From Nostoc sp. DedSLP01 (GTDB lineage Bacteria > Cyanobacteriota > Cyanobacteriia > Cyanobacteriales > Nostocaceae), in the NCBI GenBank assembly GCA_034530875.2, contig JAVRCJ020000067.1, forward strand, positions 1 through 25,843: a DNA stretch of 25,843 nucleotides. Direction: 5' to 3'. The notes under the pieces were generated by a model. That model ran no database searches and was not told the DNA's origin. It saw only the letters and a program-made list of their open reading frames with translations. How positions within the stretch are numbered: the first letter of the stretch is position 1; every line of letters starts with the position of its first letter. This document shows positions 5,114 to 23,809 of the stretch, piece by piece. The position numbers were made by a program, and so were the translations under genes.

Positions 5114-8100
5114 TTATTGGCGGACAGGTATCTCAATGAGAAATTCAGTACCCTTGCCGATGGCAGAATTACAGGATAACTTACCCTTGTGTTTGTCGAC
5201 AACAACTTGATAGCTAATAGACAAGCCCAATCCAGTACCACTACCAATAGGCTTAGTAGTAAAAAAGGGGTCAAAAATCTTCTGACAAACCTTAGCAGAC
5301 ATACCACCACCGTTATCAGCAATGCGAATCAGCAAAGTATTTGAGTCTGCCAATTCAGTGCAAATGTGAATCTGTGGTTTGTTAGTAGTTTTTGCTAATA
5401 TTGAAGACTGACCATTAACCAATGACTCTTCAAGTGCATCAATGGCATTAGTCAGGATATTCATAAACACTTGATTGAGTTGACCAGCGTAACAACTAAC
5501 TAATGGTAGCTGCCCATATTTTTTAATCACCTCAATTTCCTGGCGATGTCTATCGACAAGCCGCTTTGCGTCTACGCTCTTTTCCTTAAGTCGATGCTGC
5601 AAGATCATTAAGGTGTTATCAATGCCTTCATGAATATCGACTGGCTTCATTTCTGCTTCATCCAAACGGGAGAAATTTCGTAAACCCAGAACAATATTGC
5701 GGATGCGCGAACTGCCAACTTTCATGGAATCGAGAATCTTCAGTAAATCTTGGGCTAGAAAATCTGCGTCAATCTCTGAGGCTATGTTTTGAACTGGCTG
5801 TGAAGGATTGGGATATTCCTGTTGATAAATAGCAATTAAATTCAGTAAATCTTGTACATAGTCACTGGCATGAGCAATGTTGCCATGAATAAAATTAATC
5901 GGGTTATTAATTTCATGGGCAATTCCCGCTACCATTTCTCCCAACGAAGACATTTTTTCGCTTTGAATCAATTGGCTTTGGGTATTTTGTAATTCCGAGA
6001 GTGCTTGTTGTAAACGTTGATTTTTGTCGTGAAGTTCCGTTGTTCTTGCGGTTACTTTTTCCTCTAATGTGTGGTTATGTTCCTCCAATTTTTGATTTGC
6101 TTGAGCCAAATTTTGATAAAGGATGGCATTCTCTAGAGAAATTGCGACTTGAGTGGTGAGGAGTTTGAGGATTTCCAGGCGATCGCGGGTAAATGCTACG
6201 GTTGTGAGATTATTTTCCAGGTAAAGAATACCCAGCAATTTACCTTGATTCAGAATTGGAATACATAATATACTCTTAGGTTGCTCGCGGATAATGTAGC
6301 GATCGCTAGCTAGAAAAACAACAGCTTTCACATCATCAATAACAAAGATTTCCCTAGTACGTTTAACATAATTAATTAAAGTAACGGGGACATCATTACT
6401 AGACTCTAAATCGGTGGATGGAAACTCTATAGAAGTACGAATCGTATTTGAATTGGAACTCACTGCACTCACACTTAAGCCCAAGCCATCGCCTTCACTT
6501 AACATCAACGCGGCTTTAGAAGCACCGGCATTTTCCATCACCACTGCCATTAAGGTAGAAAGTAATTGCTCTAGTTCGATTTCTCCAGATAATGCTTGAG
6601 AGGCTTTGATTACAGATGCTAAATCTAGCATCTGAGAAATGCTGGTGCTAGAACTAATGACTGTTTCGTGAGTACTGGGGCTACTAGATAAAGATATGCT
6701 CGGTTCAGTGGTGGTATGAGTTTTGGGTTGAGTTAGTAGTTTTTCTTGTTGGATGATAGGGGCAAGTAATTGAGGATAGCGTTGCTGTAAATCGTCAACT
6801 TTGGCTTTTGCTCCCCAGCGAACGTAGCAATAGTAGGCATCTGTGAGATAGGTTTGGGCAATTTTCTGTTTACCCCTTGCTAGATAAAACTTGGCAGCTA
6901 GTTCCTGTGCTAGTGCTTCTTCGTTGATGTATTCATTTTCTTGGGCAAAGGTGATGGCGAGATCGTAATAATCCATCGCTTCTAGATATTCGCCCAGAAC
7001 TCGATATCTTTCAGCCTCTACAAGATAATATTTGTGCAGATAATTCATCGGAGCGTGATTTGCCCATTTGAGCATCTTTTCTTGATTTGTAACTACCTTA
7101 TCAAGGATTAGATTTTGCTCAATTTTTTCGACATCAGAATACACTGCCAGTCTAGCCAAAGAATCATAAAAGTGTAAAATCGGAAAAATTATCTGCCCTA
7201 TACCACACTGTAAATATTTTTCAGCGATTGTGGCATTCTCAACAGCTTCAGAGAAATGTTGAAATAGATAGTAGTGATACAGTTTGCAGCAATAAAAATT
7301 TATCAGTCCGATTCCATCTTGAGATTGCAGATAAATCGGCAACATTTCATCTTCATTGTAGAATTCACCAATGAAACTACAGGGATTTTCCCCATATCCT
7401 CGCAGGTTGTACACACTCTGCCGATAAAGTTGCTGCCAATTAAATACTGTTTCTTGCTTTGCTTGCTTGATGGCATTGCTGTTGTTTGTCAACTCCTGCT
7501 CAAGTCCCGTTAGTTCTCTACCGATGAAATATGAAGAGTAGGAATAAACGTAAACAGATAAAGCTGCACAATCTAAATCTCCTGCTTCCAGTCCGTGAGA
7601 GTAAGCTTCTAATAAAGGTTGTAAACTTTCTCGGATATGCTCTTTCCAATACCTAATAGCGGAATTAAATGTTTGTAGGATTACACCTTTAACTTCTTTT
7701 GCATTGTATTTCGCTTGTAACTTCAAAGCTAACTGGCCAAATTGATAGCCAGATTCAATATCTCCCATTACCCCACAGAGAATTACTCCATAATGCACAT
7801 AAGCAAGGGCAGAAAAGGCGGTATTGCCATATTTAAACGATAAGCCGATCCGTTTGAGAGCAAATAGTAGGAAAATATTAGGAACTACTTGATAAGCAAA
7901 ATTAATTGCACTAGATAAGATACGCATTGCTGCTAGTGAGATGTCTTGTGTCATCTCTGGCAGGTGAATTAAATCCTCAATGCTTTTGCCTACCAAATTT
8001 GATGCTGTTTCTGCCAATGCTTGTTCAACATCTGATTGACTAGGATTCTCAGGAAACTCAACTTCCAATGATTTCAAAAAGGCTAATGCAGTCTTGACAG

Positions 8101-10888
8101 CTTTTAGTGCTTGATTCTGCGCTCCACAGGCTTTAATTATAACTTCATTAACTTTCACTTTTTCTAAATGTGTTTTAGCCCGTGTTAACACTAATTCTAT
8201 AAACTGCTCCATTTGCTCAAAGTCACCAACCAAGTATGCTGCCTCTGCTGCTGTTTCATACAAAGCTAAGGTGAATTTATATTTTGTCTGCCAAGTATCA
8301 TCTGTAAGTAGTTGAATAGCAGTAGTTAAATACTTGAGTGCGGCTGGATAAGCAGTTGATGCCAAAGCTTTACGTCCAGCAGTCAGATTCATTTCTGACA
8401 ACTGTTCTTTATCGCTTTGCATATTAATTAATGGAACTGCGATGTTGAACTGATTTACCAGTTCAAAAATTCTTTCTTCTCTTTGTACAACTGGGATATT
8501 CTTCAACAGCAGTTGCCCAATCTTTAAATGAATTGATTGCTTTTGGTCTTCTGGAATTAAACAATAAGCTGCTTGTTGTACCCGGTCATGAATGAATCTA
8601 TATTGAATTGATTGGCAATTGCGATGGTTAAATATTCTGTGTTCCAAATCGATGATTTGTTCATTACCATCTTGTTCAACAATCCTGTACAACTCAGCTT
8701 GCGGTAAAATTAGTCCTGCCAGTAATGCTGGCCACAAATCATTGGCTGTAACTAATGCAGATTTTTCATGTACAATGGCAAGAGTATTTAAATCAAATTG
8801 ATTGCCAATACAGGCTGCTAATTTCAGAACTTTTTGAGTTTGTATTGGCAATTTCATGAGTTGAATTGTCATAAATTCAACTACATCATCTGTCAATGCT
8901 AAAGATTGAATTCTTACTAAATCGTATTGCCAATAACCCAAATGAAAATCAAATTCAATTAATCCATCTTTATGCAATGCTTTAAGGAATTCATGAGAAA
9001 AGAAAGGATTACCTTTAGTTTTGGCATACACCATCTGTGTGAGCGCAAGTGTTAATTTCTCTTCACATTTCAAGGTATCAGCAATTAAACAATTTAAATC
9101 ACCTTGGGTTAAAGGCGTGAGGGTAATTGTATTAATTGTGGCTCCACTTTTTTGAATCTCTTGCAATGCCAAATCTAGTGGATGTGCTTTTGTGACTTCG
9201 TTATCTCGATATGCCCCAATCAGCAAAAGACCTCCCTGACTACCACTTGAATTCTCGGTTTCACCTACTAATTCAGAAGGTTGGTTTGGATTAATTAATA
9301 ATTGAATTAATTTTAATGAAGCTGCATCTGCCCATTGCAAGTCATCTAAAAATATCGCTAAGGGATGTTCTTTAGTAGTGAAAACCTGAATAAATCTCTG
9401 CAACAATAAATTAAACCGATTTTCGGCAGCACTTCCAGAAAGTTCTGTGACTTCTGGTTGCTTGCCAATAATCAGTTCAAGTTCGGGAATCACATCAATA
9501 ATTACTTGACTTTGCTCGCCCAATGCTGAGATGATTTTCGTTTTCCAATTTTGAATTTGAGCATCAGTTTCTAATAGTATTTGCCCAATTAAATCTCGAA
9601 AGGCTTGCACCAATGCTGATAAAGGTATATCGCGTTGAAATTGGTCAAATTTACCTTTGATAAAGTAACCGCGTTGCCGAACAATAGGCTTGTGGACTTC
9701 GTTGACTACTGCTGTTTTTCCGATGCCAGAATAACCTGCCACTAGAATCAGTTCGCTACGTGAGACTGGTAGGGAGTGGTGAGCCAGCGCGGTCTTGGGG
9801 GTTTCCTCCATGAGCGACTGGCGAACCCCGAAGGGGTGAGTGGTAAGTAATGAAAATTCTTTCCCGACTCCCCACTCGCTACTCCCTACGTTGTGTGTAC
9901 TCACTCGCTCAAAAGCAGCAAGCAATTTCTCTACTTCTGCTTGCCGTCCATAGAGTTTTTCCGGGATGAGGAAACGGTCACAGATGTCCCGGACTCCCAA
10001 TTCAAAGCGTGTGATTTTTCCTGTCTGTTGCCACTGCTTGTGACATTCTTCTACATCGTGTTTGAGTCCTTGGGTGCTTTGATAGCGGTCTTCGGCATTT
10101 TTCGCCATCAGTTTGTGAATAATTAAAGACAGCATTACTGGAATGCTGGGGTTAATCTGGCTGACTGTTGGCGGTTGTTTGGCAATGTGACAGTAGACTA
10201 ACTCCATCGGGTCGATGGTGGTGAAGGGTAACTGCCAAGTTAGGAGTTCAAAAAAGGTCACACCCAACGAATAAAAGTCGCTACGGTAGTCAATACCTCG
10301 ATTCATCCGTCCGGTTTGTTCTGGGGAAATATAAGCTAGTGTCCCTTCTAAAACGTTGGGATTTGTGAGAGATTGAATTTCTCTCGGCAACAGTGTGGCG
10401 ATGCTGAAGTCGATGAGTTTGACTTCTAGCGTGCTGGAGTTAATTAAAATATTGGCAGGTTTGATGTCTTTGTGGATGATGCGATTGCGATGCAATCTCT
10501 CTAGACTGGATACGATTTGGATGGCTATGTGGAAAAAATCTTTTAGGGCGATACCATTTCCTTGTTTGCCTCTGTTCTCCTGTCCCCAATCTTTGAGCGA
10601 TATGCCGCCAAAGTCCTCCATAACTAAAGCGTAGCCATTACGGTGGTTTTCTAAAGTTAGGGGTTTGACTATCCCTGGATGGTCTAGATTTTTAGTAATT
10701 GTGTACTGATTGCGGAACTGGGCGATTTCGTTGAAGGTAGGATATTCGTTCCTTAACAGCTTGACGATTACGCTTTTTTGATCTAAATTTCTTTTACCTC
10801 GATAAACTAGGGTTTTGCTGCCTGAGTAGATTTGCTCGGTAATGCTATATCCATGTAGCGCAATCATTGTATCAGATAATACTACCAT
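5114..10888 (-). CDS. Hybrid Ser/Thr kinase / AAA ATPase / GAF / histidine kinase (HstK-type)
   Basis: 1924 aa with HKDIKPANIL, DFS and PEQTGR kinase motifs, GYSGIGKT P-loop, FLDDLQW Walker B, TPR-like helices, GAF (YLENN), H-box HEINNP and HATPase N/G boxes (DNGGG, GTGLGL). Confidence 0.96.
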   Translation of the reverse strand: MVVLSDTMIALHGYSITEQIYSGSKTLVYRGKRNLDQKSVIVKLLRNEYPTFNEIAQFRNQYTITKNLDHPGIVKPLTLENHRNGYALVMEDFGGISLKDWGQENRGKQGNGIALKDFFHIAIQIVSSLERLHRNRIIHKDIKPANILINSSTLEVKLIDFSIATLLPREIQSLTNPNVLEGTLAYISPEQTGRMNRGIDYRSDFYSLGVTFFELLTWQLPFTTIDPMELVYCHIAKQPPTVSQINPSIPVMLSLIIHKLMAKNAEDRYQSTQGLKHDVEECHKQWQQTGKITRFELGVRDICDRFLIPEKLYGRQAEVEKLLAAFERVSTHNVGSSEWGVGKEFSLLTTHPFGVRQSLMEETPKTALAHHSLPVSRSELILVAGYSGIGKTAVVNEVHKPIVRQRGYFIKGKFDQFQRDIPLSALVQAFRDLIGQILLETDAQIQNWKTKIISALGEQSQVIIDVIPELELIIGKQPEVTELSGSAAENRFNLLLQRFIQVFTTKEHPLAIFLDDLQWADAASLKLIQLLINPNQPSELVGETENSSGSQGGLLLIGAYRDNEVTKAHPLDLALQEIQKSGATINTITLTPLTQGDLNCLIADTLKCEEKLTLALTQMVYAKTKGNPFFSHEFLKALHKDGLIEFDFHLGYWQYDLVRIQSLALTDDVVEFMTIQLMKLPIQTQKVLKLAACIGNQFDLNTLAIVHEKSALVTANDLWPALLAGLILPQAELYRIVEQDGNEQIIDLEHRIFNHRNCQSIQYRFIHDRVQQAAYCLIPEDQKQSIHLKIGQLLLKNIPVVQREERIFELVNQFNIAVPLINMQSDKEQLSEMNLTAGRKALASTAYPAALKYLTTAIQLLTDDTWQTKYKFTLALYETAAEAAYLVGDFEQMEQFIELVLTRAKTHLEKVKVNEVIIKACGAQNQALKAVKTALAFLKSLEVEFPENPSQSDVEQALAETASNLVGKSIEDLIHLPEMTQDISLAAMRILSSAINFAYQVVPNIFLLFALKRIGLSFKYGNTAFSALAYVHYGVILCGVMGDIESGYQFGQLALKLQAKYNAKEVKGVILQTFNSAIRYWKEHIRESLQPLLEAYSHGLEAGDLDCAALSVYVYSYSSYFIGRELTGLEQELTNNSNAIKQAKQETVFNWQQLYRQSVYNLRGYGENPCSFIGEFYNEDEMLPIYLQSQDGIGLINFYCCKLYHYYLFQHFSEAVENATIAEKYLQCGIGQIIFPILHFYDSLARLAVYSDVEKIEQNLILDKVVTNQEKMLKWANHAPMNYLHKYYLVEAERYRVLGEYLEAMDYYDLAITFAQENEYINEEALAQELAAKFYLARGKQKIAQTYLTDAYYCYVRWGAKAKVDDLQQRYPQLLAPIIQQEKLLTQPKTHTTTEPSISLSSSPSTHETVISSSTSISQMLDLASVIKASQALSGEIELEQLLSTLMAVVMENAGASKAALMLSEGDGLGLSVSAVSSNSNTIRTSIEFPSTDLESSNDVPVTLINYVKRTREIFVIDDVKAVVFLASDRYIIREQPKSILCIPILNQGKLLGILYLENNLTTVAFTRDRLEILKLLTTQVAISLENAILYQNLAQANQKLEEHNHTLEEKVTARTTELHDKNQRLQQALSELQNTQSQLIQSEKMSSLGEMVAGIAHEINNPINFIHGNIAHASDYVQDLLNLIAIYQQEYPNPSQPVQNIASEIDADFLAQDLLKILDSMKVGSSRIRNIVLGLRNFSRLDEAEMKPVDIHEGIDNTLMILQHRLKEKSVDAKRLVDRHRQEIEVIKKYGQLPLVSCYAGQLNQVFMNILTNAIDALEESLVNGQSSILAKTTNKPQIHICTELADSNTLLIRIADNGGGMSAKVCQKIFDPFFTTKPIGSGTGLGLSISYQVVVDKHKGKLSCNSAIGKGTEFLIEIPVRQ
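5548..5574. repeat. 27-nt small dispersed repeat inserted in-frame into a HIP1 site
   Basis: Reads GCGAT[gtctatcgacaagccgctttgcgtcta]CGC. Removing it restores GCGATCGC and the peptide EKSDRQEIEV. Confidence 0.8.
9765..9895. repeat. In-frame repeat-derived insertion in the kinase gene
   Basis: Heptamer-like GGGAGT(G/A/C)G units and a GC-rich element (GGTTCGCCAGTCGC...GCGCTGGCTCAC on the - strand) add about 40 aa between ERVS and SELILVAG. Confidence 0.65.
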
Positions 10889-11673: not shown

Positions 11674-11886
11674 TTAATTTACTGTTTCAAACCCGGATAA
11701 AGCATCTAAACTTCGTTGGCACTCCTGCTTTAGCAATTTCTGGTAGGTCTTTTCCCGGATCATCATCTGCTTGTACAGCATGGGCAAAAGCTCCTTAGCT
11801 TGTTCACCAGACAACTGCTGTACTTGGTCAGCAAAAATTCTCAGGCTAAACTCTTGTTCTAGAGAGAATTCAATTTTATGATTCAT
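11674..11886 (-). CDS. nblA: Phycobilisome degradation protein NblA
   Basis: MNHKIEFSLEQEFSLRIFADQVQQLSGEQAKELL..LYKQMMIREKTYQKLLK matches the NblA signature LSLEQ.F.L..F..QV..MS.EQA. ATG at 11886. Confidence 0.92.
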   Translation of the reverse strand: MNHKIEFSLEQEFSLRIFADQVQQLSGEQAKELLPMLYKQMMIREKTYQKLLKQECQRSLDALSGFETVN

Positions 11887-12100
11887 AGTTGGTTCAATCA
11901 CCCAACTGGGCGAAAACTAAAAGGATTATGCTGGCTAGTCACGCGTCCCAACACAAATGCGGTTTATTACTTGTAGTTATGTATTTATAATATGTTGGAA
12001 AGTAATGACTGGAAATTCGGTTTTCTTCACCGAATAAAATGATGATTACCACACTGAGATTAAATATTAAGAATAATTCCAGTTCCTTCTAGTTTTTTAG

Positions 12101-12303
12101 TTAGAAATTGTCGCTTTCATCAAAAAAGCCGAAACCAAGAAACCACCTTCTGGCAAAACTGTTCTATCAATCAATGCACCAACCGGCATTATATTGTTCG
12201 CTGGGGGCGGCGGGATTGAAGCAGGCATGGTGCAAGCTGGCATCCGTCCAGTGATTACGGTGGAGCATGACCCGACCAAACTACAGCTGAGTCGGGCGAT
12301 CGC
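12101..12303 (+). pseudogene. C5 DNA-cytosine methyltransferase fragment (motifs I-II) fused in frame to dnaB
   Basis: IILFAGGGGIEAGMVQAGIRPVITVEHD is the FxGxGG SAM-binding motif I plus motif II. There is no PC catalytic motif. The frame opens after a TAG at 12098-12100. Confidence 0.8.
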
Positions 12304-12808
12304 TTCTTTGAGCGAACTGCCGATTTTCATCAACGATAACTCTTGCCCCAGCTTGACTGACATCCGCAGCCAAGTTCGCAGGGTTTTATCGCAGTACGGT
12401 GGCGTTGGGCTTGTAGTTGTGGATTACTTACAGCTTATGGCTGAAGGTGCTGACTCCAAGGCTAACATGACTGAGCGTGTTGCCGAAATCAGCCGGGGGT
12501 TAAAGAAACTCGCTAAGGATTTGGACGTGCCAGTACTTGCTCTATCGCAGTTAAGCCGTGAAGTTGAAAGTCGTAATGACAAACGCCCCATACTCAGTGA
12601 TTTGCGGTCAAGTGGAGCCGTGGAACAGGACAGTGATGTTGTCATCATGCTTTACCGTGAAGAAATGCATAATCCCGATACACCTGAGCGTGGCATTGCT
12701 GAGTTAATTGTTCGTAAGCAGCGCAATGGCCCTACTGGGACGGTCAAGTTGTTATTCGACCATCAATTTACCTCCTTCAAGAATTTATCTTGTGGTCGGG
12801 GGTTTTAA
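12296..12808 (+). pseudogene. dnaB: Replicative helicase DnaB, C-terminal fragment (copy 2)
   Basis: Same motifs as copy 1 and colinear with 684-1196. Starts at HIP1 12296-12303 and lacks Walker A. Confidence 0.9.
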
Positions 12809-12811
12809 ACT

Positions 12812-13282
12812 GTGAGTACAACTATCATCAAAGCTATCAGTTTACATCAGCCTTGGGCTTCTCTCATTCCAATGGGTTTGAAAAAGTACGAAACCCGTTC
12901 TTGGGCTACAAACTACAGAGGCCCGTTATTAATCTGTGCGGCTAAGAAAACTAGCACTCCCCAAAAACTCACTCAGAACTATTTCCTTAAGAAGTATCAA
13001 CAAATACTGGTTGACACTGATAACTACATTGAGTGGGATGATTTACCTTTTGGGAGTGCCATTGCTCTGGTAGACCTTACTGATTGCATCAAAATGACTC
13101 AGACTTTCATTAATGAACAGTCGCTTTTAGAGATTGATACTGGGGATTGGCGAGTGGGGCGTATGGCATGGAAATTGGAGAATATTCAACGAATAATACG
13201 CCCTATACCTATCACTGGCAGGCAAGGTTTGTTTAATGCAGAGATTGATTTGCACTCTCAACACCTGGAGGTAGTCGCATGA
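12812..13282 (+). CDS. ASCH domain protein
   Basis: AISLHQPWASLI.MGLKKYETRSW.TNYRGPLLICA (GxKxxExR signature) and C-terminal GRQGLF. Confidence 0.9.
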   Translation: MSTTIIKAISLHQPWASLIPMGLKKYETRSWATNYRGPLLICAAKKTSTPQKLTQNYFLKKYQQILVDTDNYIEWDDLPFGSAIALVDLTDCIKMTQTFINEQSLLEIDTGDWRVGRMAWKLENIQRIIRPIPITGRQGLFNAEIDLHSQHLEVVA

Positions 13283-19426: not shown

Positions 19427-19649
19427 AGGGCTGTTGCCAGAGGGAACAGTTGTAGCACACAAGACTGGTACATCACGCACGGTAGACGGGGTGACGGCGG
19501 CAACAAATGATGTAGGACTGATAAAACTAGCAGATGGGCGACATTTAGCGATCGCAGTTTTTGTATCAGGTTCTACGGCTGATGAGGTCACACGCGGAGA
19601 AGTTATAGCAAAGGTAGCGCGAGCCGTATGGGATAAATGGAATAAATAG
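19410..19649 (+). pseudogene. Class A beta-lactamase, C-terminal fragment
   Basis: [21 protein letters not shown]...ATNDVGLI..DGRHLAIAVFV contains the KTG motif. SxxK and SDN are absent. Confidence 0.88.
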
Positions 19650-20414: not shown

Positions 20415-20631
20415 AAAATTCACAATAAATGTAATTATCGATTTTTCGAGAGAGTGAATAGCCTTTTCAATAATGAATACGCTGCCTTTGTGCAAAGTAT
20501 TCTTGTAATTGGTAGCATTCGGCTGATGAATTGCAATCGGATTCTCAGCACAAGGTCTTATTTTAAGTTTTCCCTTAGCTGAGTTATTTCTAACGGCTTA
20601 TTTGTAAAGTAGATTTTGGTGCAACAAACCT

Positions 20632-21477
20632 ATGCTAAAGCTGCGTCCTTTCGTTAAAGTTGTGTTATCTACAGCATTATTTACAATACTGATTTGGCAG
20701 CATCCCGCTTTTGCTTGGAATAAAGCCGGACACATGGTGTCAGGAGCGATCGCTTACAACGAACTTAAGCAGAATCATCCACAAATAATCGAGAAAATTG
20801 CTGCAATTTTAACAGAGCATCCTGAATATTCTAAATTTGAACAACAGTGGAACTCTCTCCAGGGATCTAATATTTCTGCTGACTCTAAAAATTTGTACTT
20901 GTTCATGTGGGCGGCAAAATGGGCAGATAAAGCTCGTGATAACCCTGCATTTAATAACCCAACTTGGCATTACATTAATTTTCCTTACCAACCAAGCAGT
21001 TCTTCAAACTCAATCCCTCGTGAAATTCCAGGTGAAGAAAATATTCTGTAAGCTTTTCAAAAAAACCTTGATATTGTTCAAAGCGATACCAGCAATAGTG
21101 AAAAAGCAGTTGCAATATGTTGGCTGTTCCATTTAACAGGAGATGTGCATCAACCATTGCACACTACTAAACTAATAACTAAGTAATATCCACAGCCAGA
21201 AAGCGATCGGGGTGGCACGCGTTTTTACATTAAAGTTAAACCCGATAGCCAAACGATTAGTTTGCATAAATTCTGGGATGACCTAATTGTTGGTAGCGAA
21301 AGATTTCAAACAGTTCGTACCACTGCTACTCGTCTGAGAGCATCTTATCAACGTAATAGATTACCCGAATTAAGAGAAACTAAATTTGATAACTGGGCGA
21401 AGTTGGAGAGTTTTAAGATCGCAAAACAAAACGCATATCTCAACGGAAAACTTTCTGGCAGCACCGATAAGGATGAT
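20632..21477 (+). pseudogene. S1/P1 nuclease (secreted), with two nonsense codons and a truncated 3' end
   Basis: Signal peptide, then AW..GH, WAD, WHYIN, HLTGDVHQPLH, DRGG and LHKFWD all in one frame. TAA at 21049 and 21184. Confidence 0.9.
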
Positions 21478-21974
21478 GTACTGCTGAAATGATTGCTCTG
21501 TTAAGTAACTAGGTAAAGAATATTGGCTGATAAACTTATGTTGCACATCAACACAAAGTCCAATTTCTCCAGATTCCATAAAAAATGGACGGACTGAAAA
21601 TCCTCGAAACATTGAGATCGCACCAAACTTTTGATACGGAACCTTCTCAAAAAAAGGTTTTCCGGCGCTAGATTGCCACAACTGTGCATTTCCAAACAAA
21701 GAAGATTGCACCATAAAATGGAGAAAGCGCCAACAAATCTTATCATTTTGTGGAGTGCGTAGTGAGTAATCTAGAGTTAAGGTCTTACCAGTTGATTTGA
21801 AATAGACAATTCCTCTAATAATTTGAAAGCGCTCTGGCGGATCGGGTGCATCAACAGAAAGAACTAAATAAGGTTTATCATCATGTTCAATAATAGTAAC
21901 AGGATGTTTTAGTAAATAACTCAAACTATGAATTAAATTCTGCTGATTCTGATAGTATTCAGCATGGCGCTTAA
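21478..21974 (-). pseudogene. Probable long prokaryotic Argonaute, N/L1 region fragment
   Basis: EYYQN..LSYLLKHPVTII..PYLV..LDY..NDKICWRFLHF..LWQ..AGKPFFEK..FRGFSVR..IGLCVDVQHKFIS..LP resembles the N-L1 segment of long pAgos. Truncated at both ends. Recognised from memory only. Confidence 0.6.
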
Positions 21975-23567
21975 CCCGCATTTCTCACAAATGAGGAAAA
22001 AATACTGGGATTAGCTAGATTTAGGATAATTTAATTGATACATCATCAAAATACGTCCAGAGTATGGGTAACTCAAAGTAAAAACCGAAATAATCAAAGT
22101 TATATTAAATACAGCAAAATTAAAGAATCCTGAAACAACAATTTTTTACTAATAAAAATTGACAAGCCAATTCATCAGGTTAAATTAAGTAAAATAACCT
22201 CAAAAATCAGCTATTAAAAATCTGAAACAGCTATGACTTATGAAATTAGGTCATTATTAACCAGGAGAAGGCAGTTGAGATAAACGCTGATAAACCGTTG
22301 CGAAAATCTCCTTATAAGGACAAGCACTACTAATTGCGATTAAAACTCGTCGTTTACTAATAGTAATAACTGCTCCTAACTTCAATAGTTTTGCGCGGAT
22401 AGTCTCAACAGTTGCATTTTTAAATTCCGTTTTTGCTAAACATTGTTCTCGCAGGGCATTCATTAAAATGTAAGCAATCGATGCAAACCACAAACGTAAT
22501 TGATTTCCTTCAAATGTGTGGGTACTAGTTCTATCACTGTGCAATCCTAACTTTTGTTCTTTTAGACAATTCTCCATATTACCCCGTGGACAATATTTTT
22601 GAGTATAAAGTCGTCCTGGCGGAATTTTATTAATAGGGAGCGAAGTCACCACAAAACAAGTATCCACTTCTTCATAGCTGTACTCAACTTTGGCGACAAC
22701 ACGACGATTACGGCTCCAACTGTCTAGAGTTTGGTAATCAATAGAGCAATACCAAACTGAGTTATCAACAAATACTGCTGCGTCGTCCTTTAAATCTGGT
22801 GATGGAGCAAATAAGGTTTCAAAAAACTCGACTATATGTTTAATTTTTCCTGAGTATTCTTGGGATGCGCGATACTGGATTGACTTAGTTGCTTGGAGTA
22901 GCCGATTATTCGGAGCGAGTCCAAATACATAATCAATTTCAGTTTGAGATTCACACCAACTCATTATATCTTCTCTCGAATAAGCGCTGTCTTTGCGGCC
23001 AAAGTAATTGATTCTTGTTCTGAATTAATCACTTTTCCAACTGCAAATGCAAATATTGCATCGTGACGCAAAGTTTCATGGTCATTTATATCTTCATAGC
23101 CCATGATTAAGCCATATATTCGCTGTGCAATTAAACTATTGACTGGATGCAGAATCTTATTTGGCTCTCGGTAATATTTGAAACAGGCTGTTAGCACCTG
23201 TTCAAAAATAACGAAAGCCAACCTTATTGGGTATCGTGACGCTCAAGATTACTCGTGGGGGAGCAAATGCCCTCTTAGGGCATTTGCGAAGGTTGGCTTT
23301 CGTTATTTCATGACAACCCCTTAGCCGTGATGTTATTCCTCTTTTTCTGTCCAGTTCCGCAATTAATGTTAATCCTGCATCAGATGTTACAGATTCACAC
23401 TTAAAATTAACTACAACTGGACATGACTTTACTTGTTCAAATACGAACTGTTCTGGGATACAATCATTTTTATTTGGGGTCATACTTCAAACTGCTGGAA
23501 TTGTTGTGCAATATGCATTTTGGCAGTTTTTGACCCCTGTTTCTTCAAGCTTTGTGAGAAATCCAGG
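21975..23567 (-). mobile_element. IS1380-family element with internal deletion and MITE insertion (transposase pseudogene 22257-23483)
   Basis: IRs CCCGCATTTCTCACAAA (21975) / TTTGTGAGAAATCCAGG (23567). Motifs VTSDAG, GYEDINDH, DSAY and YCPRGNMENCLKE. LAAK is joined out of frame to DSAY at about 22992. Confidence 0.92.
23194..23320. mobile_element. 127-bp MITE with TTA(G) target duplication
   Basis: 20-bp IR core AAATAACGAAAGCCAACCTT (23206-23225 / 23289-23308), flanked by TTA at 23191 and 23321. Removal restores SRLTACF. Confidence 0.85.
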
Positions 23568-23596
23568 TAGAGCATTTTGTAACCGCAGCCCAACAA

Positions 23597-23809
23597 TGCC
23601 TCAACAAAAGTTTTCCTGGGGAGCTTGCTGTCACAATGGCACGACTCGTATCAATCCTTAGCCAGCGGCCGCGCCTGTGTCAGCATTGAAATCCCTAGTA
23701 GTCCATGAGCTTGCCCACCTGTTGCACCGCAATCATGGTAATGAATTTTGGGTAACGCTGTCATGTGTGATGCCGGACTGGAGGGTGCGGGTGTGGCTGG
23801 GGATTGGCT
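23597..23809 (+). pseudogene. M48/YgjP-like (DUF45) metallopeptidase C-terminal remnant
   Basis: SWGAC...RIN followed by LVVHELAHLLHRNHGNEFW..VMPDW (HExxH). Disrupted, and not in the ORF track. Confidence 0.75.

Follow-up and report, generated by a model that had tools for sequence, protein, structure and literature searches.

Probable decay of a PliAgo-group Argonaute operon on a plasmid-like Nostoc contig, and the five-gene operon of its intact relatives

Beside a broken insertion sequence, a contig of Nostoc sp. DedSLP01 (JAVRCJ020000067.1) carries an open frame that had been predicted, from the letters alone, to be a fragment of a long prokaryotic Argonaute (pAgo). This locus raises the question of whether the fragment is a remnant, a working part of a divided enzyme or an artefact of assembly, and of what the complete gene and its partners would do. 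The window analyzed here is the whole 25,843-nt stretch.

The open frame and its gene of origin

Many stops interrupt the plus strand of 21478-21974, and translation places the open frame on the minus strand. There, 21478-21972 comprises 165 codons without a stop, including FRGFSVR...IGLCVDVQHKFIS..LP, in agreement with the length and motif originally reported; a fully open frame was seen in only one of 20,000 base shuffles of the 495 nt. The frame is part of a chimeric ORF (21370-21981, minus strand) that is called as a 203-amino acid gene and consists of three residues from the end of an IS1380-family element, 165 pAgo residues and 35 residues antisense to an S1/P1 nuclease gene. Its start codon comes from the IS end: the ATG (21981-21979) lies within the IS1380 inverted repeat (21975-21991), as had been noted. 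The pAgo homology covers exactly 21477-21974 (minus strand), consistent with the predicted truncation by the IS1380 end on the 5' side and by a junction on the 3' side.

This remnant corresponds to codons 29-193 of an 802-codon gene, about a fifth of its length. In VbAgo, the N domain spans residues 1-134 and L1 residues 135-187, with PAZ starting at residue 188 (PMC13219720, partial text). By analogy with these boundaries, the fragment holds the N domain minus its first 28 residues, plus L1, and ends at about the PAZ start, where the original prediction had placed it. A working long pAgo has the architecture N-L1-PAZ-L2-MID-PIWI, of which the window contains just residues 29-193 of 802.

An intact 802-amino acid pAgo gene is found in NNBT01000358.1 (locus L018), whose positions 2116-2613 align without gaps to window 21477-21974 (498 nt, 98.2% nucleotide identity); six of the nine nucleotide differences, small numbers in themselves, alter a residue. 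Longer homologs of the fragment confirm its derivation from a long pAgo: the 32 returned are 402-818 amino acids long, most of them ca. 800, with 66-96% identity to the fragment. A precomputed Piwi domain is present in 26 of these, and a Piwi family scored above cut-off in four of the six homologs scanned. Pfam and NCBIfam searches of the fragment itself gave no match, as had been expected of annotation pipelines; PADLOC, however, does detect it as pAgo_II (E 2e-56), the model that also identifies the L018 protein (1014 bits).

The only PDB matches of the fragment are PliAgo (7R8F series, PMC9360449; E 1e-19) and a second D-R pAgo (8XIH/9WMD; E 1e-5), of which 9WMD is MbpAgo (PMC13346755). The L018 protein aligns with PliAgo across residues 1-776 with 472 bits, vs. 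195 bits for MbpAgo and 84 bits for VbAgo. PliAgo has the catalytic tetrad D563/E592/D626/D762 and an RHSY-type MID pocket in which His and Tyr are described as absolutely conserved (PMC9360449, partial text). Mapped by eye through the PliAgo alignment, the tetrad of L018 is intact (D562, E592, D626, and D758), and none of the 35 near-full-length alignment rows has lost a DEDD residue. The MID pocket of L018 keeps H496 and Y529, with Cys and Thr in place of its Arg and Ser; the Cys occupies the position of PliAgo Arg467, which varies across the group. All 27 full-length rows of the clade on the PliAgo side have the MID His and Tyr.

A quick tree of 36 rows, in which the fragment fills only 20% of the columns, RslAgo forms a long branch and PliAgo and SeAgo are absent, groups the fragment with L018 and P0002 (96), and these fall in a clade of 28 rows that includes RslAgo (SH-aLRT 98). 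No SeAgo- or CtAgo-type structure occurred among the PDB matches of the fragment and its intact relatives. The preference originally voiced for a PliAgo/RslAgo-like over a SeAgo-type affinity thus agrees with both the PDB matches and the RslAgo clade, with SeAgo itself outside the tree. As judged from sequence, the assignment of the fragment to a long pAgo of the PliAgo/RslAgo group is supported. Cyanobacterial members of the PliAgo class have been mentioned before (PMC9360449), and the window fragment is an unremarkable, decayed representative of a class already described.

Intact copies do occur in Nostoc: the 90% cluster of L018 includes named records such as WP_190952935.1 (N. punctiforme FACHB-252), which is intact, together with partial ones. 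This part of the claim that related Nostoc plasmids carry an intact pAgo stands, but its plasmid part lacks support for the close relatives, as none of nine PLSDB matches on complete plasmids reaches 60% identity. Among GTDB representatives, no close intact copy was found in 126 other genomes of the genus or in a 400-genome sample of the phylum. The RslAgo gene is plasmid-borne.

The sole close copy found among these 126 genus genomes (L002 in G109; 85% identical) is also broken, with a frameshift, a split and IS-rich surroundings, and in another genome (G081) the gene for an HExxH protein, a downstream member of the operon described below, has an internal stop. The pAgo cassette seems to decay often in the genus Nostoc.

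Breakpoints and genomic context

On the 5' side of the fragment lies a degenerate IS1380-family element (approximately 21975-23567, minus strand). Its transposase gene, with DDE_Tnp_1_4 and NF033539 matches, is broken into three pieces and hence scores below the NCBIfam cut-off. The inverted repeat on the pAgo side and that on the far side (23551-23567, with loose ends at 23567 in runs X2 and X3) agree at 15 of 17 bases, and the alignment with copies of ca. 1.86 kb from Nostoc plasmids begins at 21973-21975 and ends at 23567. A perfect 20-nt inverted repeat within the element (23206-23308) matches another contig in runs X2 and X3; a nested element that disrupted the transposase may have left it behind. 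Immediately beyond the IS end, a stretch of ca. 36 nt (23566-23601) recurs, often more than once per genome, in many of the 127 genomes of the genus that were searched.

The region that the IS occupies is represented differently in a related strain. Run X4 is an RNA library whose contigs, up to 117 kb long, were compared and thus show presence, not transcription. In its contig 14, the pAgo segment is followed by 1628 other letters replacing the 1591-nt IS, and then by window 23566-23800 (joint 21974 to 23566). In run X9, the pAgo gene extends beyond the fragment on both sides. Because the start of the HTH gene of L018 lies 1370 nt upstream of the junction, the 1628 nt of X4 fits, by length, the HTH gene, the nuclease gene, the pAgo start and ca. 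260 nt more. IS1380 stands in place of these ca. 1.63 kb, whose predicted gene content (HTH gene, nuclease gene and start of pAgo) is judged by length. The operon's original upstream flank in the related strain (23568-23800, plus strand) is documented by the X4 contig alone, the upstream flank of L018 being unlike window 23566 onward; a remnant of a YgjP-like peptidase gene lies at 23701-23805 (plus strand; PF01863, E 1.5e-10). Elements of the IS1380 family generate target-site duplications of 4-5 bp. None is present here, where the flanks read TTAA and TAGA, an absence attributable to the replacement of ca. 1.6 kb; adjacent deletions often account for the lack of such duplications (PMC11708052, partial text).

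On the 3' side, the remnant meets an S1/P1 nuclease pseudogene (20632-21478, plus strand; PF02265) that lies outside the pAgo operon, contains two in-frame stops and has lost its last 37-38 codons. The two genes are joined head-on at a deletion junction (21477-21478) with 2-nt microhomology: S1/P1 homology ends at 21478 in seven of seven aligned relatives and pAgo homology ends at 21477, leaving a 2-nt overlap common to both. Both genes run past the junction point in run X4, on separate contigs. If they once lay on one molecule, we infer a deletion of ca. 4.5 kb or more.

The gene content makes the contig look plasmid-like: it includes a RecD2-type helicase with its best matches on Nostoc plasmids, two DnaB fragments and numerous pieces of IS elements. 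The DnaB fragments are similar C-terminal pieces (654-1196 and 12194-12808), the second followed by an ASCH-domain gene (12812-13282). Other genes include an apparently intact pair of terpene synthase and cytochrome P450 (2414-4891), the phycobilisome-degradation gene nblA (11674-11901, minus strand) and, after a GFA-family gene, a C-terminal fragment of a class A beta-lactamase-like gene (19434-19649). A 1924-amino acid ORF (5114-10888, minus strand) presumably encodes a Ser/Thr kinase - ATPase - GAF - histidine kinase hybrid.

We consider it very probable that the window stretch is the dead remnant of a PliAgo-group pAgo operon. In keeping with this, the neighbors have decayed too, the S1/P1 gene by stops and the transposase gene by breakage. 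A scan of 21200-22400 found no sigma-70-like promoter on the minus strand, and the two sites in total, vs. 4.0 expected, are both on the plus strand. In one event, IS1380 would have replaced the promoter region, the XRE-HTH gene, the Cas4-like nuclease gene and the first 28 pAgo codons, presumably through an IS-adjacent deletion. In another, a deletion at the 2-nt microhomology would have removed the PAZ-L2-MID-PIWI part, both genes downstream of it and the 3' end of the S1/P1 gene. Both events are probably recent, on a plasmid-like contig of Nostoc type. Since the window copy has no PAZ, MID, PIWI or any of its partners, it cannot load a guide or cut RNA.

Counted against this reading are the open frame, the ATG and the annotation as a 203-amino acid gene, which leave room for translation. 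The ORF could instead encode one half (N-L1) of a split Argonaute, functional together with a MID-PIWI partner encoded elsewhere. Some pAgos are split, with N-L1-L2 as a protein of its own, AfAgo-N being likewise a stand-alone N-terminal piece (PMC10954474, partial text), and the fragment keeps two Phe that in PliAgo (F116 and F123) stack on the 3' part of the guide (PMC9360449). AfAgo-N, however, has L2 and a co-encoded MID-PIWI partner, and the window has neither; the fragment also lacks the first 28 residues, its ends coincide to the base with the IS end and the deletion junction, and its relatives at 98% DNA identity are single-chain proteins. The missing 3' part, for which the original prediction had proposed a search of the rest of the genome, was not found there: tblastn with four full-length homologs detected no further pAgo piece, leaving the missing 609 residues nowhere in the assembly, which is 99.78% complete in 113 contigs and could lack a piece. 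The Piwi family likewise had no match in this genome, by a search whose control profile matched in three of 14 genomes. Nor did it yield the operon's upstream HTH and nuclease genes or its small and HExxH genes; one of these searches had no built-in positive control, although a related profile (A4) matched in seven of 127 genus genomes. A functional half-Argonaute is accordingly a highly improbable account of the 203-amino acid ORF. We hold it equally improbable that the junctions arose as chimeras during assembly, with the operon in fact intact in the strain. Such errors might be expected of an assembly in 113 contigs and of a contig rich in IS ends; yet the missing 609 residues are absent from the whole assembly, and contigs of runs X2 and X3, which may be the source data and so are not independent, span window 20500-23478 with no differences. 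Single 5084-nt contigs of both runs cross both junctions (word depth 475 and 190), which makes misassembly less likely.

As a dead remnant of a PliAgo-group operon, the fragment is itself of little weight: it is a pseudogene, albeit a clean example of the loss of a defence cassette by IS-linked deletion, and the window adds a base-resolved record of that loss in one Nostoc-type strain. The fragment is of value in pointing to the intact PliAgo-type genes of Nostoc and to the MbpAgo- and VbAgo-like operons of the genus.

The operon in intact relatives

Examination of the neighboring genes in relatives, which the original prediction had proposed, revealed a conserved operon. In L018 it encodes, in order, an XRE-HTH protein (119 amino acids), a PD-(D/E)XK Cas4-like nuclease (310), the pAgo (802), a small protein (121) and an HExxH protein (375), with overlapping stop and start codons; the two upstream genes have HTH_3, PDDEXK_1 and Aga_Cas4-like_Nuc matches. 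Of the 23 loci that could be checked, 22 have the small and HExxH genes downstream of the pAgo, that of RslAgo itself among them, the sole miss being a weak partial match of uncertain clade (L012). These loci are related and do not constitute independent trials. They remain from 32 examined. Of the nine left out, five stop within the pAgo gene (L010, L023, L029, L032, and L033), L002 is broken, L035 gives just a short partial match, L020 is a duplicate of L019, and L070 had come to light through its HExxH gene. Many of the examined loci went into the small-gene profile, so that only L014 (RslAgo), L015 and L070 are independent detections, whereas the HExxH profile was built from one locus and 77 database proteins.

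Searches that began from the HExxH protein gave a similar association. Five of seven matches in the 127 genus genomes were full-length, as were two of 12 in a 401-genome sample of Acidobacteriota, and all seven of these full-length matches lie directly after a pAgo. No pAgo was found in the 1.5-kb flanks of the 12 weak matches (two from the genus and 10 from Acidobacteriota), and Pfam gave no useful name for 11 of their ORFs. In two loci, the pAgo is fused in frame at its C-terminus to the small protein (L003:7959-10751 and L024:4197-6998; 930 and 933 amino acids); a separate XRE and IrrE/M78-like gene pair is found upstream in both as well.

The L018 operon shares with the PliAgo group (PliAgo, PDB 7R8F-7R8K, and RslAgo; PMC9360449) the DEDD tetrad, the MID His and Tyr, and the upstream HTH and PD-(D/E)XK genes, none of which survives in the window, with its residues 29-193 only. 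The main text of that paper names only the HTH and nuclease genes, to which the relatives examined here add the two downstream genes; it uses "peptidase" and "protease" zero times, and its Fig. 1b and Supplementary Fig. 1 could depict the genes. We found no description of the small and HExxH pair in the literature, taken exclusive of supplements and most subscription journals. The PnyAgo/MbpAgo group and VbAgo (PMC13346755 and PMC13219720, partial texts) belong with this gene to a broader D-R lineage, but are more distant. Nostoc pAgos resembling MbpAgo (L072, 384 bits) and VbAgo (L073, 634 bits) nevertheless have the same nuclease, small and HExxH genes. The APACE1 system (CtAgo/MaAgo with ACE1; PMC12094033, partial text) likewise pairs a cyanobacterial long-A pAgo with a Cas4-family nuclease, but targets DNA, and no APACE1 structure occurred among the PDB matches of the fragment and its relatives. 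ACE1 and ACE2 systems are treated in that source as unrelated clades, with a mean size of 313 amino acids for ACE2, which the 310-amino acid nuclease of L018 fits in a comparison by length alone.

The order nuclease - pAgo - small - HExxH recurs with VbAgo-like or more distant pAgos in L073 (G123; VbAgo-like), L074 (G457) and L070 (G834). An MbpAgo-like operon in L072 (11510-14601; G101), as also in L007 and L008, directly follows TniQ, TniB/TnsC and a transposase-like ORF; this type of operon looks like the cargo of a Tn7-like element in Nostoc.

The downstream pair and its possible role

The small protein matched only generic four-helix bundles in fold searches. In the HExxH protein, H152, E153, H156, E219, H259, and P260 are invariant in 78 of 78 sequences, and D223 and R265 are conserved in at least 90%. 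An HExxH with a downstream Glu ligand and an HP..R motif is a combination that we take to be the signature of an M48-like zinc peptidase. The protein has an extra N-terminal three-helix bundle, and scored no match above curated cut-off to M48 (HtpX/Ste24) or M78. Foldseek returned nothing at E <= 0.001 in the PDB or viral libraries, and PDB profile searches gave coiled-coil matches only. An Atlas lead pointed to Lit/U49 (score 0.77-0.79); PF10463 matched in none of 201 genomes and in no controls.

For the intact relatives, a plausible sequence of steps can be proposed. The XRE protein would repress the operon, and the PD-(D/E)XK nuclease would make ssDNA guides from invading DNA, an activity demonstrated just for the separate ACE1 clade (PMC12094033) and speculated upon for the PliAgo group (PMC9360449). 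Given its clade and residues, the pAgo would cut complementary RNA of invader transcripts, as DNA-guided RNA cleavage, which in the PliAgo group falls between positions 9' and 10', has been shown for PliAgo and RslAgo; the cellular role of such pAgos is called open in the same source (PMC9360449, partial text). The small four-helix protein could then bind the zinc-peptidase-like HExxH protein, link or restrain it, and connect the pAgo with this second arm, which would act by proteolysis, a role that we propose only tentatively. By extension, intact operons might constitute a two-armed defence in which an RNA-cutting Argonaute is coupled via the small protein to a latent M48-like zinc protease; this sequence-based idea may well prove wrong, but is favored by the occurrence of the pair in 22 of 23 loci, by the position of all seven full-length HExxH genes beside a pAgo and by the two fusions of small protein and pAgo.

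As the chief alternative, the HExxH protein might act without being an effector. ImmA/IrrE/CapP-like systems provide a model in which cleavage of an XRE repressor induces an operon, and the HExxH protein could be a mere regulator of this kind. The HTH protein matches PADLOC capH weakly (E 4e-6), and five of 46 HExxH relatives scanned have weak Peptidase_M78 matches (best E 8e-4), both of which would suit such a function. Against it, five loci (L071-L075) keep the small and HExxH pair with no HTH-like ORF directly upstream (ORFs of at least 110 amino acids, by eye), the separate XRE and M78-like pair of L003 and L024 exists besides the HExxH gene, and it is the small gene, not the HTH gene, that is fused to the pAgo in these two loci. 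On this analysis, a purely regulatory HExxH protein appears unlikely. Should the downstream pair instead act as a protease arm, the system would go undetected in any in vivo test that uses only the pAgo, and the five-gene Nostoc cassette would offer a direct test route; if the two-armed reading is true, PliAgo-, MbpAgo- and VbAgo-type enzymes have so far been studied only without their protease arm.

Two further features accompany these genes. HExxH proteins P0156 and P0172 have a C-terminal match to the CHAT (caspase-like) domain. Ubiquitin-like conjugation genes adjoin the pAgo operon in two unrelated hosts (L003:2971-5078, minus strand, and L014:10220-12399), with multiubiquitin and ThiF/E1 genes in both and an E2-like gene in L003.
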